Shown: positions 30,538 through 41,410 of the stretch, piece after piece
Position numbering within the stretch: position 1 is the first letter of the stretch
Layout: each line of letters opens with the position of its first letter
From: an uncultured Candidatus Binatia bacterium
GTDB taxonomy: Bacteria > Desulfobacterota > Binatia > UBA9968 > JAJDTQ01
Assembly (NCBI GenBank): GCA_964291295.2
Contig: OZ219754.1
Span: forward strand, 96,001-160,000
Direction: 5' to 3'
Length of the DNA: 64,000 nucleotides
Position numbers and translations under genes: made by a program
Notes under the pieces: generated by a model
Databases searched by the model: none
What the model saw: the letters and a program-made list of their open reading frames with translations, nothing else
What the model was told of the DNA's origin: nothing

Positions 30538-32646
30538 ATGGAACCGCGCACCCGGCACCCCGCCGACGCGTTCATCTTCGCCCACGCCGACTGGGAGTGC
30601 GGACGGGAGGGTGTCCCCTGCCACTTCGGACCGGAGGCTTCGGGACAGTGCTCGGCGCGCGCGGAATGCGTTCCCCGACGGGACGGTGACCGCTGGCTGT
30701 GCCGGCGGCCGCTGGCCCGCGGGGGAGCCTGTGAGAAGGGTCCGCAGCCCCACGGCGCGTGCTGCTTCCCGCCAGCCGCATGCGTGCCCCGGGCGACCGT
30801 GCGGCGGCGGCTCCGGACCGCCTGGCGTCTGGCCGCCCTGTGCGCGCTGGCGGCGGCGCTGGCGCTGCTCACCAGCCGCTCCATGATCCTGCCGGGACCG
30901 GTGCTTTCGACACACGCGGCCTTCGAGCAGGACTGCGGCCAGTGTCACGTCGGCGTGGCCGAGCCGTGGCGGGTGTGGGCGGGAGAGGTCTTTCGCGCCG
31001 GCCTGTCCGGCCGGGAACGGCGACTGGCCAACGCCGCCCGCTGCCTCTCCTGTCATGACTTCGGTGCCGGCGCCATGGCCGCGCACACCGCGGGGCCGGC
31101 GGCGTTCCCGCAGGCCGGCGGCGGGGAACGGGACCGCCGGCGGCCGCCCGGGCCGTCTCCGGCCACCGCGGCGATGCTGCCGGAGGACCACCGGCCGGGG
31201 GGACCGGGCGAAAGCCGCGGGAACATCCCCTGCACCGTCTGTCACCGCGAGCACGAAGGCCGCGACTTCGTCGCCACCCGCATGACCGATGCCCGCTGCC
31301 AGACCTGCCACCGGGAGGTCTTCGCGGGCTTTCCCGCACACCCGCCCTTCACCGGCTATCCCCATCATGCGCTCTCCGCCATCGCCTTCGACCACGGCCG
31401 TCACTTCAGCCGACACTTTGCCGCCGCCGTCAAGGACGGCGTCTCCCCGCCCGAAAACTGCGCCTCGTGCCACGTCCAGGAGACCATGGCTCTCCGCGGT
31501 TTTGGCACGTGCGCCGCCTGCCACGACCAGGAGATCACGCGCGCATCCACCGATCTGGAGTTCCTGGCTCCGCCCGGCCTCGACCTGGAGACCCTGGCGG
31601 ACAGGCCCATCGGCGACTGGCCGCTGGATGCCGAGGCGGAGCCCAACGCGTTCCTGCGGCTGATGCTCGAGGCCGGCGGCTATCTGAACACAGAGGAATT
31701 GAAGACCGTCACCGAGATCGACCTGCTGGACCTGAGCAACGCCGGCAAGGCCGAAAAGGAGGCGGCCGCGGGACTGGCCTGGGCGTTCAAGAAGCTGATC
31801 CGGGACCTTGTGCGGAACGGCCCCTCGGTTTTCGTGGAAGTGGCCCAGGGACTTCCCGGCGGCGCTTCGGTCCCGGCCGATCTGGCCGGCTCGCTGTCGT
31901 TCGAGGTGGCGAGCCATGCGGCCAGCCAATGGTTCCCGGAACTGGAGCGCGAACTGGAGCGGCACGAACAGGGTGAAGCGGTGGCCACCCGCGCCGTCGA
32001 GACGAATCTCGACGATCCCGTGGACATGGACGAATGGCTGCGCTACGGCGGCTGGCGATATCGGGAACTGGCGCTGCGCTACCGGCCCACCGGACACGCC
32101 GACCGGTTCCTCCGCGGCTGGCTTGCGTTGTCCACCGCTCCGACCGCCGCCGGCACGGCGCTCTTCGAGGCGCTCACCGACGACGAGGCCCCGTCCGCGA
32201 CCTGCGCCCGATGTCACCGGTCCCGTGAAGCGGCGGACGCCGGAGACGGCCGGGAAGGCCCGCCGCGTGTCCACTGGCTGGCTCGGGGAACACGTGCGGC
32301 TGCGCCCGTGTCCATGGCTCGATCCTTCAGGGCTGTGGCCGACGCACCGGCGCAACCCGCGTCCGGGCCATCGTTTCACCTGCGGACCTTCTCGCACCGC
32401 TCCCACCACCACGCCGTGGCCACGGGCGGTTGCGCTTCGTGCCACCGCATGGCGGAAGGCAAGGAGCCGCGGCAGGGCCCCGCCGGCTTCGCCCCGGTAT
32501 CGCCCGCCGCCTGCGCCGCCTGCCACGATCGGGAGACGGCGTTGGCCAGTTGTACGACCTGCCACCGCTACCATTTCGGCAACGGCGACCCCAGGCTGCT
32601 GCACACCGGCGACCACGCCGCCGGCCCCCGTCCCTTCGGAGAATGA
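30538..32646 (+). CDS. Membrane-anchored decaheme c-type cytochrome with Cys-rich N-terminus
   Basis: Ten CxxCH (CGQCH, CLSCH, CTVCH, CQTCH, CASCH, CAACH, CARCH, CASCH, CAACH, CTTCH); nine Cys before an Arg-rich stretch and TM anchor. Confidence 0.88.
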   Translation: MEPRTRHPADAFIFAHADWECGREGVPCHFGPEASGQCSARAECVPRRDGDRWLCRRPLARGGACEKGPQPHGACCFPPAACVPRATVRRRLRTAWRLAALCALAAALALLTSRSMILPGPVLSTHAAFEQDCGQCHVGVAEPWRVWAGEVFRAGLSGRERRLANAARCLSCHDFGAGAMAAHTAGPAAFPQAGGGERDRRRPPGPSPATAAMLPEDHRPGGPGESRGNIPCTVCHREHEGRDFVATRMTDARCQTCHREVFAGFPAHPPFTGYPHHALSAIAFDHGRHFSRHFAAAVKDGVSPPENCASCHVQETMALRGFGTCAACHDQEITRASTDLEFLAPPGLDLETLADRPIGDWPLDAEAEPNAFLRLMLEAGGYLNTEELKTVTEIDLLDLSNAGKAEKEAAAGLAWAFKKLIRDLVRNGPSVFVEVAQGLPGGASVPADLAGSLSFEVASHAASQWFPELERELERHEQGEAVATRAVETNLDDPVDMDEWLRYGGWRYRELALRYRPTGHADRFLRGWLALSTAPTAAGTALFEALTDDEAPSATCARCHRSREAADAGDGREGPPRVHWLARGTRAAAPVSMARSFRAVADAPAQPASGPSFHLRTFSHRSHHHAVATGGCASCHRMAEGKEPRQGPAGFAPVSPAACAACHDRETALASCTTCHRYHFGNGDPRLLHTGDHAAGPRPFGE

Positions 32647-33021
32647 ACCCACGCCTCGACGCCCGCAGCGCTTCCCGGGTCACCCGCATCGTCCGACGCG
32701 CAGTCCTCCGGGTAGCCGCGATGCCGGGAATCGCGTGTCTCGCCTCGGGTGACGCCGGCATGCATCCGTGCGGCGCTGGCTCCACGAACCGCTGCGACCG
32801 TACCGCCGTCATGGCGTCCACGGCCGCTTGGTGAACCGGCCTCAAGAAGCCCGCGTCGTCAAACCGCGGGATGATCTGCAGGGCCGCGGCACAGGCCGCG
32901 TTCGTCAGGTTGCGGATGGCGGCGCAGACCCGAGCACCCCGGCTGCCAGGATCCGGACAAGGACAGCCGGCGAGCTTTCATCCGCTGCCAACGGCAGGCA
33001 GCCATCGCCGCGTCCAAGAAC

Positions 33022-33759
33022 TCACGCGTTCAGCAAGCTGCGAGAGAAATGACCTCGAAAGTGAACAACTCCGGGATTGACCCCGATGCGGGCCACGACT
33101 CCTTCACGACCCATCTTGCTTTCCTGTACTTTCGCCTGCCACGGCGGCGGCTTGCTGATCGTCGTTCCGGGAATCGGGTCCGGCAACTGCGAACCTTGCA
33201 GCGCGTTCGTCCGGATATGCCTCGCGAAATCGGCGTGCGCCATGAGTTGGCGCGACGGCCTGCCGGTCCCGGGGGTCACCAGCCCAATCCTCTTGCCATG
33301 ATGTTGCCTCACGAGGCGCATCGCCTCGGCGATGTCACTGTCATTGCTTACGACGACCGCACAATCGTAGGCATCCAGCCACGCATCGTTCAGCAGATGC
33401 ACCGCAAGATTGACGTCGGAGCCCTTTTCCTCGGTGCGGATCACTTCCGTCGTGCGCCGGTTTCCGACTGGCTGTACAAGAGGCGCCCGGACCCTGTGGC
33501 TGAGAAAGTGCCCGAAATAAACCGCGACCTCGGGCCGGTGGTGCCGCAGCGCACGGAGGTAGACGTCCTGCCGCTGCGGCTTCGACGGATCGGCAAGGGT
33601 CCCCGACACTCTCGCCGTGAAGTACTTGACCTTCAGGATATGGTGATGGGGCTGGAGAACTTTCGCGAACAGTGCCGGCAGGTCCAGCCATTTCCAGACC
33701 GTCCCCTTGAGTGCTCCGTAATAGAGATTGAAGCCGTCGACATGGACGTAGGTGCGCAT
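33022..33759 (-). CDS. NYN domain (LabA/DUF88, PIN fold) ribonuclease
   Basis: HVDGFNLYYG, VKYFTARV, EEKGSDVNLAVHLLNDA, VVSNDSDIAEA: acidic active-site set intact. Confidence 0.9.
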   Translation of the reverse strand: MRTYVHVDGFNLYYGALKGTVWKWLDLPALFAKVLQPHHHILKVKYFTARVSGTLADPSKPQRQDVYLRALRHHRPEVAVYFGHFLSHRVRAPLVQPVGNRRTTEVIRTEEKGSDVNLAVHLLNDAWLDAYDCAVVVSNDSDIAEAMRLVRQHHGKRIGLVTPGTGRPSRQLMAHADFARHIRTNALQGSQLPDPIPGTTISKPPPWQAKVQESKMGREGVVARIGVNPGVVHFRGHFSRSLLNA

Positions 33760-33771
33760 CAATGTCCGCCC

Positions 33772-33801
33772 AAAAAAAGCAGGGGCCTCCGAAGAGGCCC
33801 C
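33772..33801 (-). terminator. Intrinsic terminator immediately upstream of the NYN start codon
   Basis: Minus strand GGGGCCTC-TTCG-GAGGCCCC followed by TGC-T7, ending about 12 nt before the ATG. Confidence 0.75.
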
Positions 33802-33832
33802 GCGCCCTGCAGTCGAAACCGCAGGGGGTATC
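33772..33832 (-). ncRNA. Predicted ~60-nt two-hairpin leader/small RNA upstream of the NYN gene
   Basis: Hairpin 1 CCCTGCGGT-TTCG-ACTGCAGGG (33805-33826) and hairpin 2 (terminator), both with UUCG loops, between a promoter and a U-tract. Confidence 0.55.
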
Positions 33833-33838
33833 GGCAAC

Positions 33839-33867
33839 AGCTTAGGTGCTCGAGCCATGGAAATCAA
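33839..33867 (-). promoter_or_regulatory. Putative sigma70 promoter driving the leader RNA/NYN
   Basis: Minus strand TTGATT-N17-TAAGCT. Confidence 0.6.
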
Positions 33868-34218
33868 GTGGCCCCAGGCCGGCCCCATCGTCCTTCACGC
33901 CCTCCGGTTCCATCGCTTCGAGCATGTGGACCTGCTCTCCGAGGGAAGGTCCGGAATCCCGGGAAGTCGCGCCGCAAGTTCCTGAGCGCCCCCAAGGCCA
34001 AGTCGCGCCGGACCATGAAGCGGTTCGGGGGCAGTCACCGGCGTGACCTCATCCGGCACACGCTCGACAACCGGGCCGGGTTCCGTCCCGATGGCCTCTT
34101 TTCGCCGCCGGGTCCGGACCTCGTTGACACGGTTCAGCCGGTCTGATATCGGCGGGGCGTGGGCCGAAACGGGTCCTGCCGCAGGGCGCCGGGCCTGCCG
34201 GCCCGGGGGAGGTGAACG

Positions 34219-35250
34219 ATGGACCGACACGAACCGCGCGGCGTGGTGCACTGGATCGATCATTTCATCGTGGGCACCAATGACATGGTCACTTGGGTCG
34301 ACTGGGCCGTGAACGCCACCGGCATCACCCGGCGGCCGATTCGCGGCATTACCACCACGGCGCGAAAGAAGGATGTCCCGATCATGTGTTTCCTGTGGTG
34401 GGACAGCGAGTCCTGCCGCATCGGCGCCTTCCTGCAGCCCGAGGTCTACCCGGCCGCCAAGCCCCTGGGCGAGGACACGCCACGATGCGGATTCTACATC
34501 CGGCCCGAGGATGTGAACAGACACGTCAAGCGGCTCGAGCGCCACGCCATCCCGCACACCGGCCCGGTACGGACGGCGGACTGCGGCGAGGAGGGCACGG
34601 TGATCCACTTCGCCGACCCCGACGGCAACCAGTTCGAGTTCTGGGCGCCCGACCACATGCCGGAAGGGGCCATGGAGATATGCACGGCCGAGGGCGTCGG
34701 CCGCATCAGCCACGCGGTGTACGGCTCCCGGGATCTGGGCCGGACCGCCAGCTTTTTCGAACAGTACTGCGCCCTCAAGCCGGAGGTCGGCCCCAACGTC
34801 GCCGAGGGCAATCTGGTCCTGCGTCTGCACGCCGGCGGGCGGCTCATCTACAAGCTCGCCAACCAGGTCGACGAGCGCGTGGCCGGACACGGACCTTGGT
34901 GGGACATGCACACGGCGTTGACGGTGCGGGCGGAGGAGTTCATGCCCAACTACCGCCGGATGTGGGAAACTCTGCCAGAGGAGCGGCGGGCCAAGGAAGA
35001 GGACAACCTCTCGCTGGAGCAGGAGGACGCCCTGCCGGCCCGCACCGGTCTGCACCGGAGTCCGGTGGGTTACCGCTGGAAGGCCATGTTCGAGCGCGGC
35101 GACGAATTCTACGACTGGGACGGCCACGCCTTCCACTTCTTCGGCGGCAGGCCCGTCAAGGACGACGGTTCACTGGCCCTCTACACCATCGTGGAACAGG
35201 AAGACTATCTCACCGACGTCGCCGCGGAGGCGGAGAAGGCCCGCGCCTGA
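34219..35250 (+). CDS. VOC/glyoxalase-superfamily protein (two-module)
   Basis: WIDHFIV, IHFADPDGNQFEFW, RISHAVYGSRDL, DMHTALTV, FYDWDGHAFHF; GGAGG RBS. Confidence 0.75.
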   Translation: MDRHEPRGVVHWIDHFIVGTNDMVTWVDWAVNATGITRRPIRGITTTARKKDVPIMCFLWWDSESCRIGAFLQPEVYPAAKPLGEDTPRCGFYIRPEDVNRHVKRLERHAIPHTGPVRTADCGEEGTVIHFADPDGNQFEFWAPDHMPEGAMEICTAEGVGRISHAVYGSRDLGRTASFFEQYCALKPEVGPNVAEGNLVLRLHAGGRLIYKLANQVDERVAGHGPWWDMHTALTVRAEEFMPNYRRMWETLPEERRAKEEDNLSLEQEDALPARTGLHRSPVGYRWKAMFERGDEFYDWDGHAFHFFGGRPVKDDGSLALYTIVEQEDYLTDVAAEAEKARA

Positions 35251-35568
35251 GCCGCCGTCCTCCCACCACACCGTCACGGCCGCCGGTCACGCCCAGCGTG
35301 GCCCGGAGCGGTTCGCGAGCACCCGGAACGACCCGGTCCATCGGCCTGCGCTCCAGGCGCCGCTCGCAGGGCTGTCCCACCCTGTTTGCCGGGCCGACCT
35401 TCATTCCCTTGAAACAAGACAACTTCCATGGGCAATGGCCGTCACGCACGGACAGGCGTATGATGGCTGATTGAAACCTTCGGCTACAGCCGCAGCGGAC
35501 TCGGGGTTGTGCAGGCGCCGCTTCGCACGCCGTCACCGGGTGTACGCGGCCCGTGAAAGGACAGGGAC

Positions 35569-37285: not shown

Positions 37286-37768
37286 CCAGATCAGGAGGGT
37301 TTTACCATGGCTATTGAGCGGACCGGCGGTGCTGGCAACGAATGGCTTTGGGGAGAGAATGGCAATGACAGGTTGGATGGCGGTGCCGGTGACGACATTT
37401 TGACTGGCGGCGCCGGTGACGATACTTTGGCTGGCGGTTCGGGCAATGACCGGATCTGGGGCGGCATTGACGACGACAGGCTGGAAGGCGGCGCTGGAGA
37501 CGACAGACTGACGGGCGGCGTCGGCGCCGACACCTTCGTGTTCCGTACGGGAGACGGCAGCGACACCATTGCCGACTTCAAGGCCGACGATACGATCGAG
37601 ATGGTCGGCGTGTCGGGCGGGTTCGAAGCGTTGGTCATCGAGCAGGATGGCGTCAACGCCGTCATCCGCTACGGCGATCAGGACACGATCACGCTGCTGA
37701 ACGTGACGGCCGCATCGCTGAGCAGGGACGCCTTCCGTTTCGTGACCGCGGAAAGGAAGGTTCTGATG

Positions 37769-38005
37769 GGCGGCAAGGGCGACGACACGCTGAACGGCGG
37801 GGTCGGCGATGACACGCTGAGGGGCAACAAGGGCGACGATACGCTGAACGGCGGGGTCGGCGATGACACGCTGAGGGGCGGCAAGGGCGACGATACGCTG
37901 AACGGCGGGGTCGGCGGCGACACGCTGAGGGGCGGCAAGGGCGACGACACGCTGAACGGCGGGGTCGGCGATGACACGCTGAGGGGCGACAAGGGCGACG
38001 ATACC
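37769..38005 (+). repeat. 54-bp tandem repeat, about 4.4 copies ([18 protein letters not shown])
   Basis: Near-identical nucleotide units inside the RTX gene. Confidence 0.9.
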
Positions 38006-38332
38006 TTCGTGTTCGTGGTCGGAGACGGCGACGACACGATCACCGATTTCGAGGCCGGCGACAGGATTCGCCTGGATGGCGTATCCGGCGGGTTCGCGGC
38101 GCTGCGTATCGAACAGGACGGCACCGATACCGTCATCGGCTACAGCGGCGACGATACGATCACCCTGTCGGGCGTGTCAGCGGACAGCCTGGACGCGAAC
38201 GACTTCATCTTGCCCGCCGGCGCTGGCGAAACCACCGAAACACAATCCCGCAACGGCGTTACTCTCAGTGGCGGCGGCTATGACGACGATCTCAGAGGCG
38301 GCGACGGCAACGACGGGCTCTGAGGCGGCGAC

Positions 38333-39790: not shown

Positions 39791-40509
39791 CAGCGCCTCC
39801 CAGCGGTCCGGCTTCGTCCGGCGCAGCGACGCCTCCAGCAAGGGCGGCGTCAGGTTCATGCGCTCGGCAATGTAACGCACGATATGACGCTCGAACGCGC
39901 TCCCCGCAACCGGCCCGCCCGTCATCTCGTCGAGAAGGTCGGGCGGTATCTCCTCGGCATAAACGACCCTGAGCGCCAGAAGCCCGGCCCGCACCTCGGG
40001 CGAGGCCGACAGCCGGCTTGGCGCGATCTCGCGTGCACCACATGGGCGAACTCCCTGACGAACGGCTCCAGCGCCTCGGGCGCGTCGATCATCCCCGGCA
40101 CCGAGCGCGGCGCCGTCCAGCGACCCCGGCCGTGGTAGAAGACCAGCGGGATGATCGCCGGCAGCCTGTCCCCGGCGACGCCATTCTCGATCTCGCGGCG
40201 CCAGATGTTGACCATGTATTTCAGGAGCTGGAGCGGCGTGTCGGCGTCGACCCGGCTCTTGTTCTCCAGGAGTACAGACAGGCGCGCATCGTGGCCGCTC
40301 CTCAGCCTGACCCGGAACAGCGCGTCGCACCGGGTCCGCGCCGCGTCCTCGTCGACGAAACCGCCCTCGACCGCCTCGGGCGGGGCCTCGGGGTCGAGGA
40401 GGGCGGCCACCTCTTGCGGCAGGTATTCCGCGAGCAGCGAAGCGGCGCGGGCCGGCTCGGAGACCAGCGCCCGGAACAGTGCATCGTGCGGCGTCGCCGG
40501 AAGGCTCAC
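39527..40509 (-). pseudogene. Rpn/YhgA-like (Transposase_31) PD-(D/E)XK nuclease, frameshifted near 40030
   Basis: PHDALFR, RCDALFRV, LENKS, QLLKYMVNIW, IIPLVFYHG in one frame; C-terminal EQGRAEGIERGRSEGREEGRAEG...LELHFG in another. Confidence 0.82.
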
Positions 40510-40679
40510 CGGGAGAGACCCCCGGCATCTCCGGGACGCTCCCGACGGACATCCCGCTCACGGGCTGGAAGAGAAAGGGCGTTCGACATGGCGGTACCCT
40601 ACGCCGGGCACTGTCGTGTCGGCAATCGCCGGCGTCTGCCCCGAGAACAGGCCGGGACCGTCATCACGAGCGGTAGTCC

Positions 40680-41410
40680 CCGAGGATATCGGCGGCAATG
40701 CTGTCGGAGTGACGCGGACGACGGACCCGCGCACCGGGTTCCGCGCCAGATGCGCATACCATGCGGTGGTCTCCACCCGGGTGTGGCCGAGCAGCCGGCC
40801 GATCATCGGCAAACCCTCGCCCGGCGCCAGCGCCCCGCTGGCGACCGACTGGCGGCAATCGTGAAGCCGGGCGTTCCCGATCCCCGCGCGCCGGCAGACC
40901 CGTTCCCACGGGTCATGGAGGTTGTGCATGTGCGTGCCCCTCTTCTTCCCAGGGATCACATGCGGGTTGCACTGGACGCGGGGAATGTTCGCCAGCACGT
41001 CCACTGCCTCCGGCGACACGGCGCGCGCCGGTCTTGGAATCCGCGAGCCGCAACTCGCGTGCATCCAGGTCCACATCCTGCCAGCGCAGCGTCACGATCT
41101 CGTTCCTGCGGCAGCCCATGAGCAGCAGGAGCCGGATCGCGGCAATGGCATGCACCGAGACCCCTTTGCGGTTCTCCGCCTCGGCCAGCGTCCGCCCGAG
41201 GTGGCGGAACTCCTCCTCGCTCAGGAACCGCTCGCGCCCAACGTTCCCGGTTCTTCACAACCAGCCGGCAGGGGTTGCTCGCCTTCGGCAGCTGCCCCTG
41301 GTCCTCCGCCGCGTTTCACAGGCGCGAAAGGGTGCTGACCACTTGGTCCGCCGTCACCGGGGTCGCGCGCAGGGAATGGCGCAGTTCCGTCACCTTGGCA
41401 TGGTCCAATG
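40680..41410 (-). pseudogene. Tyrosine recombinase/phage integrase remnant
   Basis: Frameshifted pieces ERFLSEEEF, LLLLMGCRRNEIVTLRWQDVD, DSKTG, RLHDCRQSVAS, IGRLLGHTRVETTAWYAHL. Confidence 0.85.

Follow-up and report, generated by a model that had tools for sequence, protein, structure and literature searches.

What does a short hairpin RNA do when it carries its own terminator and lies directly in front of a predicted ribonuclease gene: is it part of that gene's expression signal, or a second gene that acts on the ribonuclease? The question was raised by a locus in a 64,000-nt stretch of bacterial DNA (the window), for which an earlier note, written from the sequence alone, had proposed a promoter, a ~60-nt RNA with two UUCG hairpins, a terminator and an NYN ribonuclease gene, together forming a type III-like RNA-antitoxin module. 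The sequence was read directly, and all of these elements were found on the minus strand where the note had placed them (Table 1).

Table 1. Features of the RNA–NYN locus in window coordinates
Feature	Position	Strand	Basis or description
-35-like hexamer TTGATT	33862..33867	-	Read from the sequence; TTGAYY in the same register in relatives
-10-like hexamer TAAGCT	33839..33844	-	Read from the sequence; 17-nt spacer after the -35 hexamer
Predicted small RNA, ~61 nt	33772..33832	-	C-rich 5' tail, hairpin 1, CGC linker, terminator hairpin, U tract
Hairpin 1	33805..33826	-	CCCTGCGGT / TTCG / ACTGCAGGG; 9-bp stem including one G-U pair, UUCG loop
CGC linker	between 33805 and 33801	-	Joins hairpin 1 to hairpin 2
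Hairpin 2 (terminator stem)	33782..33801	-	GGGGCCTC / TTCG / GAGGCCCC; 8-bp G+C-rich stem, UUCG loop
Terminator tail	33772..33781	-	TGC then T7 (UGC and U7 in the RNA)
Intrinsic terminator, whole	33772..33801	-	Terminator scan and covariation
Spacer, 12 nt	33760..33771	-	Contains GGGCGG, a weak purine-rich stretch ahead of the ATG
NYN-fold nuclease gene, conserved 207-codon part, HEC-09 family	33139..33759	-	Pfam, PADLOC, structure model
38-codon read-through extension and stop codon	33022..33138	-	CAG at 33138-33136 replaces the stop codon of relatives

The promoter stood only in part: both hexamers and their 17-nt spacing are present, but, counted by hand, they match the consensus at 4/6 (-35) and 3/6 (-10) positions and are thus weak, and a consensus promoter scan of positions 32000–35500 returned 0 sites, TTGATT not being called. 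The start of the small RNA was inferred from the position of the -10 hexamer. Hairpins 1 and 2 were both present in the minimum-free-energy and the centroid folds, and in the terminator scan the stem of hairpin 2 has 8 pairs (7 G-C), its loop a length of 4 and its tail the sequence TGCTTTTTTT. Taken by themselves, the single-sequence statistics of the feature are unimpressive: the fold z-score of the window RNA is −2.33, with 2/200 shuffles folding equally well, and 2 terminator-like sites were counted vs 1.6 expected. That the feature exceeds chance follows from the comparison with relatives, not from the window sequence alone. The RNA is a single unit, no tandem repeats being found in positions 33650–34250, and a 27-nt inverted match (78%) between the RNA and positions 34170–34196 was discarded, as it looks like chance in G+C-rich DNA. 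The NYN reading frame opens with the ATG at 33759, 12 nt past the U tract; to describe it as lacking a strong ribosome-binding site was fair, since only the weak GGGCGG stands 6–11 nt ahead of this ATG.

The open reading frame comprises 245 aa, whereas its relatives end after an invariant Trp at residue 207 (in alignment A6, 113/126 family members end exactly there and the others are at most a few residues longer), and with its 38-codon read-through extension the window protein may be weakened. Pfam NYN (PF01936) was matched by residues 2–177 with 34 bits vs a cut-off of 24.2 (E 4.9e-8), and the PADLOC profile HEC-09 over its full length, residues 2–207 corresponding to profile positions 3–202 of 203 (E 2.1e-43). 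An earlier structure model from an 8-sequence alignment was poor (pLDDT 58.3) and was replaced by an AlphaFold model from the 126-sequence alignment (pLDDT 95.9). Best Foldseek matches of the latter were 2qip (E 3e-8) and the MARF1 NYN domains 6fdl and 5yaa (E 3.5e-6 to 1.7e-4), and a long beta-hairpin (residues 84–112) is inserted into the NYN core of the predicted structure. D115, D140 and D142 do not vary among the 126 sequences, and D8, E110 and E111 are kept in 90% or more of them; the window protein has all six, in line with the acidic residues having been called intact. The assignment of metal-binding residues among them is inferred from MARF1 (Payne et al., bioRxiv 10.1101/2024.01.29.577857), and the predicted catalytic fold is, by the model, intact. 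A PDB sequence search with the protein gave no match, an NCBIfam search gave nothing meaningful (best E 0.093), and no family of the ToxN, CptN or TenpN type was found in it, Pfam returning NYN only and the fold search NYN domains.

The ~62-nt RNA was represented by a covariance model, R1, which matches positions 33772–33833 at 82.4 bits and finds no other strong copy in the 3.7-Mb genome. Among 137 non-redundant NYN loci, collected in two scans from many phyla, R1 matches adjoin NYN within ~110 nt in 133; three of the four exceptions are truncated at contig ends, and the fourth gives a match of just 18.6 bits. A leader not conserved upstream of homologues had been named beforehand as the outcome that would speak against the module, and the two-hairpin leader was found conserved upstream of NYN homologues, with covariation, in many phyla. 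In alignment A3 and the independent set A5, both fitted to the covariance model, compensatory changes occur at 17/17 and 16/17 pairs, and 95.2% and 96.4% of the cells concerned are paired. Hairpin 1 contributes 9/9 pairs in A3 and 8/9 in A5; the terminator stem contributes 8/8 in both, with 99.5% and 99.8% of its cells paired. The observed covariation values of 0.617 and 0.638 were reached by 0/500 shuffles, and slid controls scored at most 0.147. Identity of the RNA to its relatives is 82–94%, compared with 46–67% at NYN third codon positions and only 20–48% in the 60 nt upstream. Conserved single-stranded parts are the C-run of the nearly constant 5' tail and a YGC linker, and the loop of hairpin 1 is usually UUCG across the family. 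This comparison shows both the predicted structure and the sequence of the RNA to be under selection.

Promoter-like motifs recur at the same place. TTGA[CT] lies 24–36 nt ahead of the RNA in 75/133 loci (4.3 expected), TANNNT ends 3–10 nt ahead of the R1 match in 84/133 (23.4 expected), and the strict pattern TTGNNN-N16-18-TANNNT occurs in 50/133 (1.9 expected). In Rfam 15, the best matches of the window region reached 16.3 bits vs a gathering score of 75 and 10.1 vs 100, and ten related loci spanning all three layouts described below yielded no match but RNAI of ColE1 plasmids, which lay elsewhere than the RNA. Mimicry of a tRNA T-arm by hairpin 1, judged by eye, was rejected because loop length and sequence do not fit.

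The position of the RNA relative to NYN is variable. At 103 of the 133 loci it lies in tandem upstream (median distance from RNA end to NYN start, 13 nt), at 22 it is convergent, at the NYN stop codon or 3' end, and at 8 divergent; at 30/133 loci it is therefore outside any 5' untranslated region. A mycobacterial prophage carries the convergent form, in which the shared hairpin could serve NYN termination as well. Promoter-like hexamers stand in the same register in all three classes, and the three orientations argue that the RNA is an independent small-RNA gene and not only a leader. Placed on the NYN tree, the layout changes trace to few apparent events (four, where two is the minimum possible and well-supported branches force only one per class). 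Next to the pair no protein gene is conserved, the commonest neighbour family, integrase, occurring in only 10/137 loci, which bears out the remark that a protein antitoxin gene is missing. The comparison thus shows the predicted RNA to be the sole conserved partner of the NYN family, genetically linked to it in three orientations.

The best reading of these data, to which we give an even chance, is a type III-like RNA antitoxin paired with an NYN toxin in a self-contained two-gene module. The first gene would encode a ~60-nt small RNA with its own sigma-70-type promoter, ending in a G+C-rich intrinsic terminator; the second, starting 12 nt past the U tract, would encode a 207-residue NYN (PIN-like) ribonuclease of the HEC-09 family. 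The small RNA would bind the NYN protein and hold it inactive, like a type III RNA antitoxin, and in the tandem layout the terminator would provide far more RNA than NYN mRNA, because NYN would be made only by read-through. Should the supply of RNA drop or the RNA be displaced, as on phage shut-off of host transcription or on plasmid loss, free NYN would cut RNA and growth would stop. The earlier note had left open whether the RNA binds or attenuates NYN. An RNA gene that can be convergent to or divergent from NYN favours binding, and pure attenuation is disfavoured by the 22 convergent and 8 divergent loci; the RNA-antitoxin proposal as a whole is partly supported.

Loci at which the pair has decayed or multiplied bear on what the RNA does. 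The RNA is kept at 71–80 bits where NYN has internal deletions or survives as remnants only (L022, L115, L118) and also where NYN is gone (L117, L120, L121), and no intact NYN of this subfamily without the RNA was seen among the loci examined. In 150 other genomes of the window's phylum, R1 gave 13 matches, 6 with NYN directly downstream and 1 with a C-terminal NYN remnant; genome G124 (99% complete) lacks NYN but has the RNA three times, each copy with a promoter, and these copies may have an NYN-independent role or be orphan antitoxins. Such asymmetric decay, with the RNA staying and NYN being lost, would by analogy resemble that of antitoxins, and is partly expected from target size alone, a 62-nt RNA outlasting a broken 620-nt gene. 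Multiplication takes several forms: a tandemly duplicated block of promoter, RNA and dead NYN stub (L048 and L061), two RNA units within one predicted transcript (L239), and four units of ~31–33 nt before the terminator in 17 small E. coli, Salmonella and Klebsiella plasmids (e.g. L316). The RNAs of L033 were considered as attachment-site duplicates of an integrase element and rejected as such, since the copies differ at many positions and both have promoters.

These copies bear on the explanation that the RNA is a cofactor or structural subunit of an NYN–RNA ribonucleoprotein, serving folding, assembly, activation or target choice and not inhibition. Linkage, covariation and the three orientations fit it equally; the single-stranded 5' C-run and YGC linker could be contact or pairing sites, the inserted beta-hairpin could, judging from the model, hold RNA, and for HEC-09 cloned in E. 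coli neither toxicity nor protection is reported in the accessible part of its description. A lone cofactor would be useless, however, so that the decayed loci that keep the RNA without NYN, and the genome with three RNAs and no NYN, count against it. RNA-only duplications and multi-unit arrays raise the RNA:protein dosage, which fits an inhibitor in excess, and a 5' tail that is nearly constant is not a variable guide. On balance, a cofactor role is considered unlikely.

Distinctly less probable is a purely cis-acting leader, either an attenuator or a site at which NYN cleaves its own mRNA, with the short RNA as a by-product. The tandem layout does resemble terminator-based leaders (attenuators, riboswitch expression platforms) in having an intrinsic terminator in the 5' untranslated region near the start codon; at 103/133 loci, including the window, this terminator separates the one visible promoter from the NYN start, so that NYN there needs read-through. 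RNase III and RNase E self-regulate through stem-loops in their own leaders, which provides a precedent. Unlike such leaders, the RNA has no Rfam match and lies outside the 5' untranslated region in 30/133 loci; the 22 convergent copies at the NYN 3' end and the 8 divergent ones, with promoter-like hexamers of their own, cannot be 5' leaders. Promoter-bearing RNA copies also persist where the downstream NYN is dead or absent, and the alignments show no conserved pairing of an alternative, antiterminator kind, the two hairpins being paired in 91–99.8% of cells.

An antisense regulator, whose C-run would pair with the ribosome-binding region of NYN or with a different RNA of the cell or of a phage, is judged improbable to the same degree. 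The constant single-stranded C-run at the RNA 5' end and the purine-rich stretches that follow the U tract in many tandem loci are compatible with pairing, and read-through from NYN would, in the convergent form, yield a transcript antisense to the RNA. The NYN upstream regions of the convergent and divergent classes, however, share no G-run, and several, including convergent-class mRNAs, look leaderless, for which reason pairing of the C-run with the NYN ribosome-binding site was rejected; in the tandem layout the RNA has the sense of the NYN transcript, so that one scheme of pairing does not account for all three layouts. That RNA and NYN are unrelated neighbours, with ordinary terminators, repeat elements or an integration site lying beside NYN by chance or shared mobility, is very improbable: at three loci from the same genus the RNA comes immediately after the stop codon of a preceding gene, whose transcript it could end, and integrase genes do adjoin some loci, but adjacency within ~110 nt spans many phyla, strong copies are as rare as one in the 3.7-Mb genome and 13 matches in 150 others of the phylum, and the sequence of hairpin 1 and the linker, needless for a terminator, is conserved.

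Type III toxin–antitoxin families number three. With these (ToxIN, CptIN, TenpIN) the RNA-antitoxin reading shares the order of promoter, non-coding RNA, Rho-independent terminator and RNase gene without a protein antitoxin, as found in the window and in 103/133 loci, the occurrence of the module on plasmids and prophages and, in some relatives, the tandem array of ~31–33-nt RNA units; type III antitoxins are described as repeat arrays in the accessible part of one account (PMC8860590). The present module differs in its protein, which has an NYN/PIN-like fold and no ToxN-type family by Pfam, in an RNA that has no repeats in the window or at most loci but a single hairpin unit plus terminator, and in an RNA gene whose orientation to the RNase gene may be convergent or divergent. 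Other observations go against the antitoxin reading: most loci hold a single RNA unit where an array of repeats would be usual for type III, and the high G+C content and stable tetraloops of the RNA give no evidence of the lability that is usual for antitoxins. Work from 2026 sorts type III systems into named families, tenpIN first, in the part of it that is accessible (PMC13682666). The statement that no NYN system of RNA-antitoxin type has been characterised agrees with our literature searches, which found none; NYN together with a type III toxin–antitoxin system was not found in the literature searched, and in PMC10441182 an NYN gene appears only in deletion tables.

The protein belongs to the same family as HEC-09, a PADLOC candidate defence gene presented, in the accessible part of its description, as a single NYN protein with MARF1-like conserved aspartates. 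According to the same part of that source, the candidate was defined by its embedding in Hma systems, and a HEC-09 gene, cloned together with the native promoter region in the one published test, did not protect against the phages used; no toxicity is reported there, and HEC-09 is treated as a single protein, an RNA going unmentioned in those sections (bioRxiv 10.1101/2024.01.29.577857). Unlike this defining context, the window copy has no flanking Hma (helicase, methylase, ATPase) genes, none being found in a Pfam search of its neighbours. Eukaryotic NYN nucleases such as MARF1 have the fold and acidic pocket in common with the bacterial protein (Foldseek E 3.5e-6 to 6fdl), but identity is 12–14%, and the bacterial protein adds the beta-hairpin 84–112 and a C-terminal tail ending in the invariant Trp. 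Regnase-1 (ZC3H12A) is another eukaryotic NYN nuclease that we take to be comparable; Regnase-type enzymes recognise stem-loop RNAs, and we know of no dedicated partner RNA for a eukaryotic NYN enzyme.

Genomic relatives of NYN number >587 among the matches listed, and 456 plasmid records carry them, including plasmids of 3.4–5.7 kb; many small enterobacterial plasmids carry little besides the RNA–NYN module. On prophage and viral contigs the RNA was present in 32/37 loci. R1 gave no credible match on Klebsiella, Xanthomonas, M. avium, Pseudomonas, Rhizobium and Erwinia plasmid loci; in the Klebsiella and Xanthomonas clade R1 misses the leaders, which were judged to be related by eye only, and at one Rhizobium locus (L314) no obvious terminator leader was seen by eye. 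An RNA gene beside a predicted RNA-cutting enzyme in hundreds of bacteria, plasmids and prophages points to a putative, undescribed RNA-controlled toxin or defence module. The wider proposal, which in our estimate falls just short of an even chance, is a further RNA-antitoxin family with a fold unrelated to ToxN, CptN and TenpN, in which an NYN ribonuclease would be held inactive by a dedicated ~60-nt hairpin RNA, usually of one unit and in any orientation, spread over many phyla, common on enterobacterial plasmids and prophages, and acting in abortive infection or plasmid maintenance.

If this is true, RNA-antitoxin systems would extend beyond the listed type III families to a much wider set built on a PIN-like nuclease, and HEC-09, so far a single protein that failed its phage test, would gain a second component, which would change how it is cloned and assayed. 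Small enterobacterial plasmids that carry little else would receive a testable reason for keeping the module. A new, strongly covarying bacterial RNA family, absent from Rfam, would be defined as well.

In the window itself, the locus had been placed at the edge of a decaying accessory region, which is plausible: to its right are an integrase fragment, a gene for a YhgA-like transposase and an RTX gene, to its left respiratory cytochrome genes. Pfam identifies multihaem cytochrome and Fe-S genes in one flank; in the opposite flank it finds a glyoxalase-like gene and a carbonic anhydrase. NYN genes of this family are commonly annotated as a nicotine-pathway hydroxylase, a label that is flagged here as a misannotation.

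The arrangement described in the earlier note, that is, promoter hexamers, twin UUCG hairpins, a run of seven U and the ATG of an NYN nuclease gene, was found in full on the minus strand (see table), and the initial observation was thereby confirmed. By itself the window sequence makes a weak case, since a promoter scan of 32000–35500 returned no sites, the terminator scan found 2 terminator-like sites against 1.6 expected, and the fold z-score of the single RNA sequence was −2.33. The element is present once in the 3.7-Mb genome. A 27-nt inverted match (78%) between 33795–33821 in the RNA and 34170–34196 in the promoter region of a glyoxalase-like gene is probably due to chance in G+C-rich DNA.

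Features of the RNA–NYN module and of the mobile stretch to its right (window coordinates)
Feature	Position	Strand	Basis or remark
Promoter −35-like TTGATT	33867–33862	minus	sequence reading
Spacer between TTGATT and TAAGCT, 17 nt		minus	sequence reading
−10-like TAAGCT	33844–33839	minus	sequence reading; 12 nt, then hairpin 1
Hairpin 1, 9 bp, UUCG cap	33826–33805	minus	minimum-energy and centroid folds
Linker CGC between the hairpins		minus	sequence reading
Hairpin 2, 8 bp, G+C-rich, UUCG cap	33801–33782	minus	both folds and terminator scan
Tail, UGC and seven U	33781–33772	minus	sequence reading
NYN ORF start ATG	33759	minus	12 nt past U tract; product Pfam NYN, E 4.9e-8
RTX repeat protein	37307–38323
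YhgA-like transposase (195 aa) adjoining 172-aa integrase fragment	39922–41076	minus

Multihaem cytochrome and Fe–S genes lie to the left of the module; to its right follow the glyoxalase-like gene, carbonic anhydrase, a molybdopterin-domain fragment and the RTX protein, and further right the transposase, the integrase fragment, then LytB and UbiD. Transposase, integrase fragment and RTX gene mark a decaying mobile stretch, and the flanking genes fit an accessory region with the module at its border, as had been proposed.

Within the genus, 12 NYN copies formed three protein groups with 75–85%, about 45% and about 40% identity to the window protein. In all 12, hexamers resembling a promoter are followed by a hairpin and a terminator, with the start codon some 10 nt beyond, and the differences among their stems were compensating. 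A wider scan using one genome per species gave at least 587 relatives; the best 80 of these came from Alpha-, Beta- and Gammaproteobacteria, Acidobacteriota, Nitrospinota, Bacteroidota, Planctomycetota, Chloroflexota, Verrucomicrobiota, Deinococcota, Saccharibacteria and others, and nearly all of these 80 carried the shared leader. A covariance model of the RNA (R1; 62 positions, 17 pairs) was built from 24 hand-picked sequences. In two alignments of its matches, both fitted to R1 and hence biased in the model's favour, 95.2% of cells were paired with compensatory change in 17/17 pairs (A3, 98 sequences; covariation score 0.617, slid control at most 0.147) and 96.4% with 16/17 pairs (A5, 60 sequences; 0.638, slid control at most 0.124), and 0/500 shuffles reached the observed value in either. 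For A5, taken from a second scan led by an actinobacterial homologue, 58 sources were searched (57 of 79 new loci plus locus L108); the 22 loci repeating contigs of the first set were left out, and no seeds were among the sources. The two-hairpin leader anticipated upstream of homologues is thus conserved, with covariation. Compared with ten close relatives, the RNA was 82–94% identical, against 46–67% at NYN third codon positions and 20–48% in the 60 nt upstream, so that selection acts on the RNA's own sequence, over and above the demands of terminator function.

The best R1 match beside NYN was scored at 137 non-redundant loci, which remained of 159 once 22 duplicate contigs had been removed. 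The RNA lay upstream on the same strand at 103 (tandem; median 13 nt to the NYN start), on the opposite strand, immediately next to the NYN stop codon, at 22 (convergent; Actinomycetota and three others) and on the opposite strand 71–112 nt upstream at 8 (divergent; Acidobacteriaceae). No layout was assigned to two loci with the NYN gene cut by the contig start and one with only 23 nt of contig left beyond the gene; at one locus the best match reached 18.6 bits. Promoter-like hexamers occurred at the same register in all three layouts: the strict pattern at 50/133 loci (1.9 expected), TANNNT at 84/133 (23.4 expected) and TTGA[CT] at 75/133 (4.3 expected). Layouts clustered on the NYN tree, which requires 4 changes and whose well-supported branches demand just one for each class. 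Few independent rearrangements thus took place, yet each was retained across much divergence. As a 5′ leader is impossible at a gene's 3′ end or on the other strand, the RNA constitutes a separate gene, with the NYN protein as the constant of its neighbourhood. No constant protein-coding neighbour was found among the 137 loci, the commonest being a tyrosine integrase (10/137), in agreement with the proposed lack of a protein antitoxin gene. The RNA is very probably a conserved, independently encoded partner of the NYN nuclease. At L108, the convergent RNA gene, adjoining NYN, lies 38 nt beyond the end of a gene of the T4-type RNA ligase family (PF09511; 2715–3953, minus).

The window NYN matched PADLOC HEC-09, a candidate defence gene, over its full length (E 2.1e-43). 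In the accessible part of its account, HEC-09 is a MARF1-like candidate, embedded in Hma systems, in which three aspartates are conserved; it did not protect E. coli, and no RNA is mentioned there (bioRxiv 10.1101/2024.01.29.577857). A structure model from 126 homologues (pLDDT 95.9) had 2qip and MARF1 NYN domains as top matches; model and homologues show a core with a long beta-hairpin inserted at 84–112 and, at the end of the tail, an invariant Trp, the last residue in 113/126 members. At 33136–33138 (minus) the window has CAG where all close relatives have a stop after this Trp, and the resulting 38-residue extension may impair this allele.

Several features suggest an inhibitor made in excess. 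The tandem layout leaves no room for a promoter of NYN's own, and the gene is expressed only when transcription reads through a strong terminator. Four of the 12 same-genus NYN copies are broken by frameshift, stop or deletion; RNA at 71–80 bits is kept within the genus beside NYN with internal deletions or remnants (L022, L115, L118), and it is retained directly after the upstream gene's stop where NYN is gone (L117, L120, L121). A Paracoccaceae pair has promoter, RNA and dead NYN stub duplicated two extra times ahead of the intact gene, and a transcript on one viral contig contains two RNA units, of which the first lacks a U tract. On the 4.6-kb E. coli plasmid NZ_LR890655.1 (L316:225–378), four tandem units of ~31–33 nt, each a C-run and a hairpin resembling hairpin 1, precede terminator and NYN; 17 small mobilizable plasmids, from E. 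coli, Salmonella and Klebsiella, carry this module. An unbiased R1 scan of 150 genomes of the window's phylum gave 13 matches: six with NYN directly downstream, one with the NYN interior replaced, three promoter-bearing orphans in one genome without NYN and three weak. On this sequence evidence, an antitoxin of NYN is the best-supported reading of the RNA, at roughly even odds. Chief among the points against it are the apparently high stability of the RNA, the negative outcome of the sole phage test of HEC-09 in the accessible published account, and target size, which by itself makes the longer gene the likelier one to be lost.

In same-genus genome G008, the NYN frame at L015:2130 aligns from an ATC codon, a nearby ATG being out of frame, in an otherwise open copy. 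The three promoter-bearing orphans belong to genome G124 (99% complete), in which no NYN gene was found; they are near-identical and lie within a repeated element (L139, L146, L147). At L141:1–1136, two small ORFs are inserted after the RNA, the larger acetyltransferase-like by eye, and behind them come the conserved last NYN residues, as if the interior had been replaced. At L033:162–1696, an orphan promoter-bearing RNA lies 1.7 kb ahead of a full RNA–NYN module and is followed by a tyrosine integrase with the Pfam domains Phage_integrase and Arm-DNA-bind_3.

No Rfam family matched the RNA in any of the three layouts, and no NYN-based RNA-antitoxin system was found in the literature searched, as the earlier note had supposed. 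Judged by its sequence, the module would work most like a type III toxin–antitoxin system, a class sorted, in the accessible portion of a 2026 source, into named families beginning with tenpIN (PMC13682666). The type III-like proposal held for the layout; however, the window module lacks an antitoxin repeat array and its NYN falls outside the type III toxin families, so it is not counted among the type III members.

The NYN family was present in 456 plasmid records (Klebsiella 207, Xanthomonas 61, Escherichia 49, others), including plasmids of 3.4–5.7 kb, in 3 phage records, one with NYN adjoining the immunity repressor of a mycobacterial prophage and the RNA convergent, and in 74 viral contigs. 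Of the latter, 58 were searched for the RNA, which was found in 32/37 with 39–66% identity. In a more distant plasmid clade (Klebsiella, Erwinia, Xanthomonas, Pseudomonas), whose leaders R1 did not detect, NYN is preceded by a promoter, by a hairpin that is different and longer, and by a strong terminator 25–45 nt from the NYN start (L233, L315, L235, L313); the Klebsiella, Erwinia and Xanthomonas leaders share a AUUAAGUU stretch, and this leader is probably a sister RNA family. NYN homologues in plasmid records H38, H40, H41 and H57 are annotated as 6-hydroxy-3-succinoylpyridine hydroxylase or monooxygenase (HspA, nicB), which looks like a propagated misannotation.
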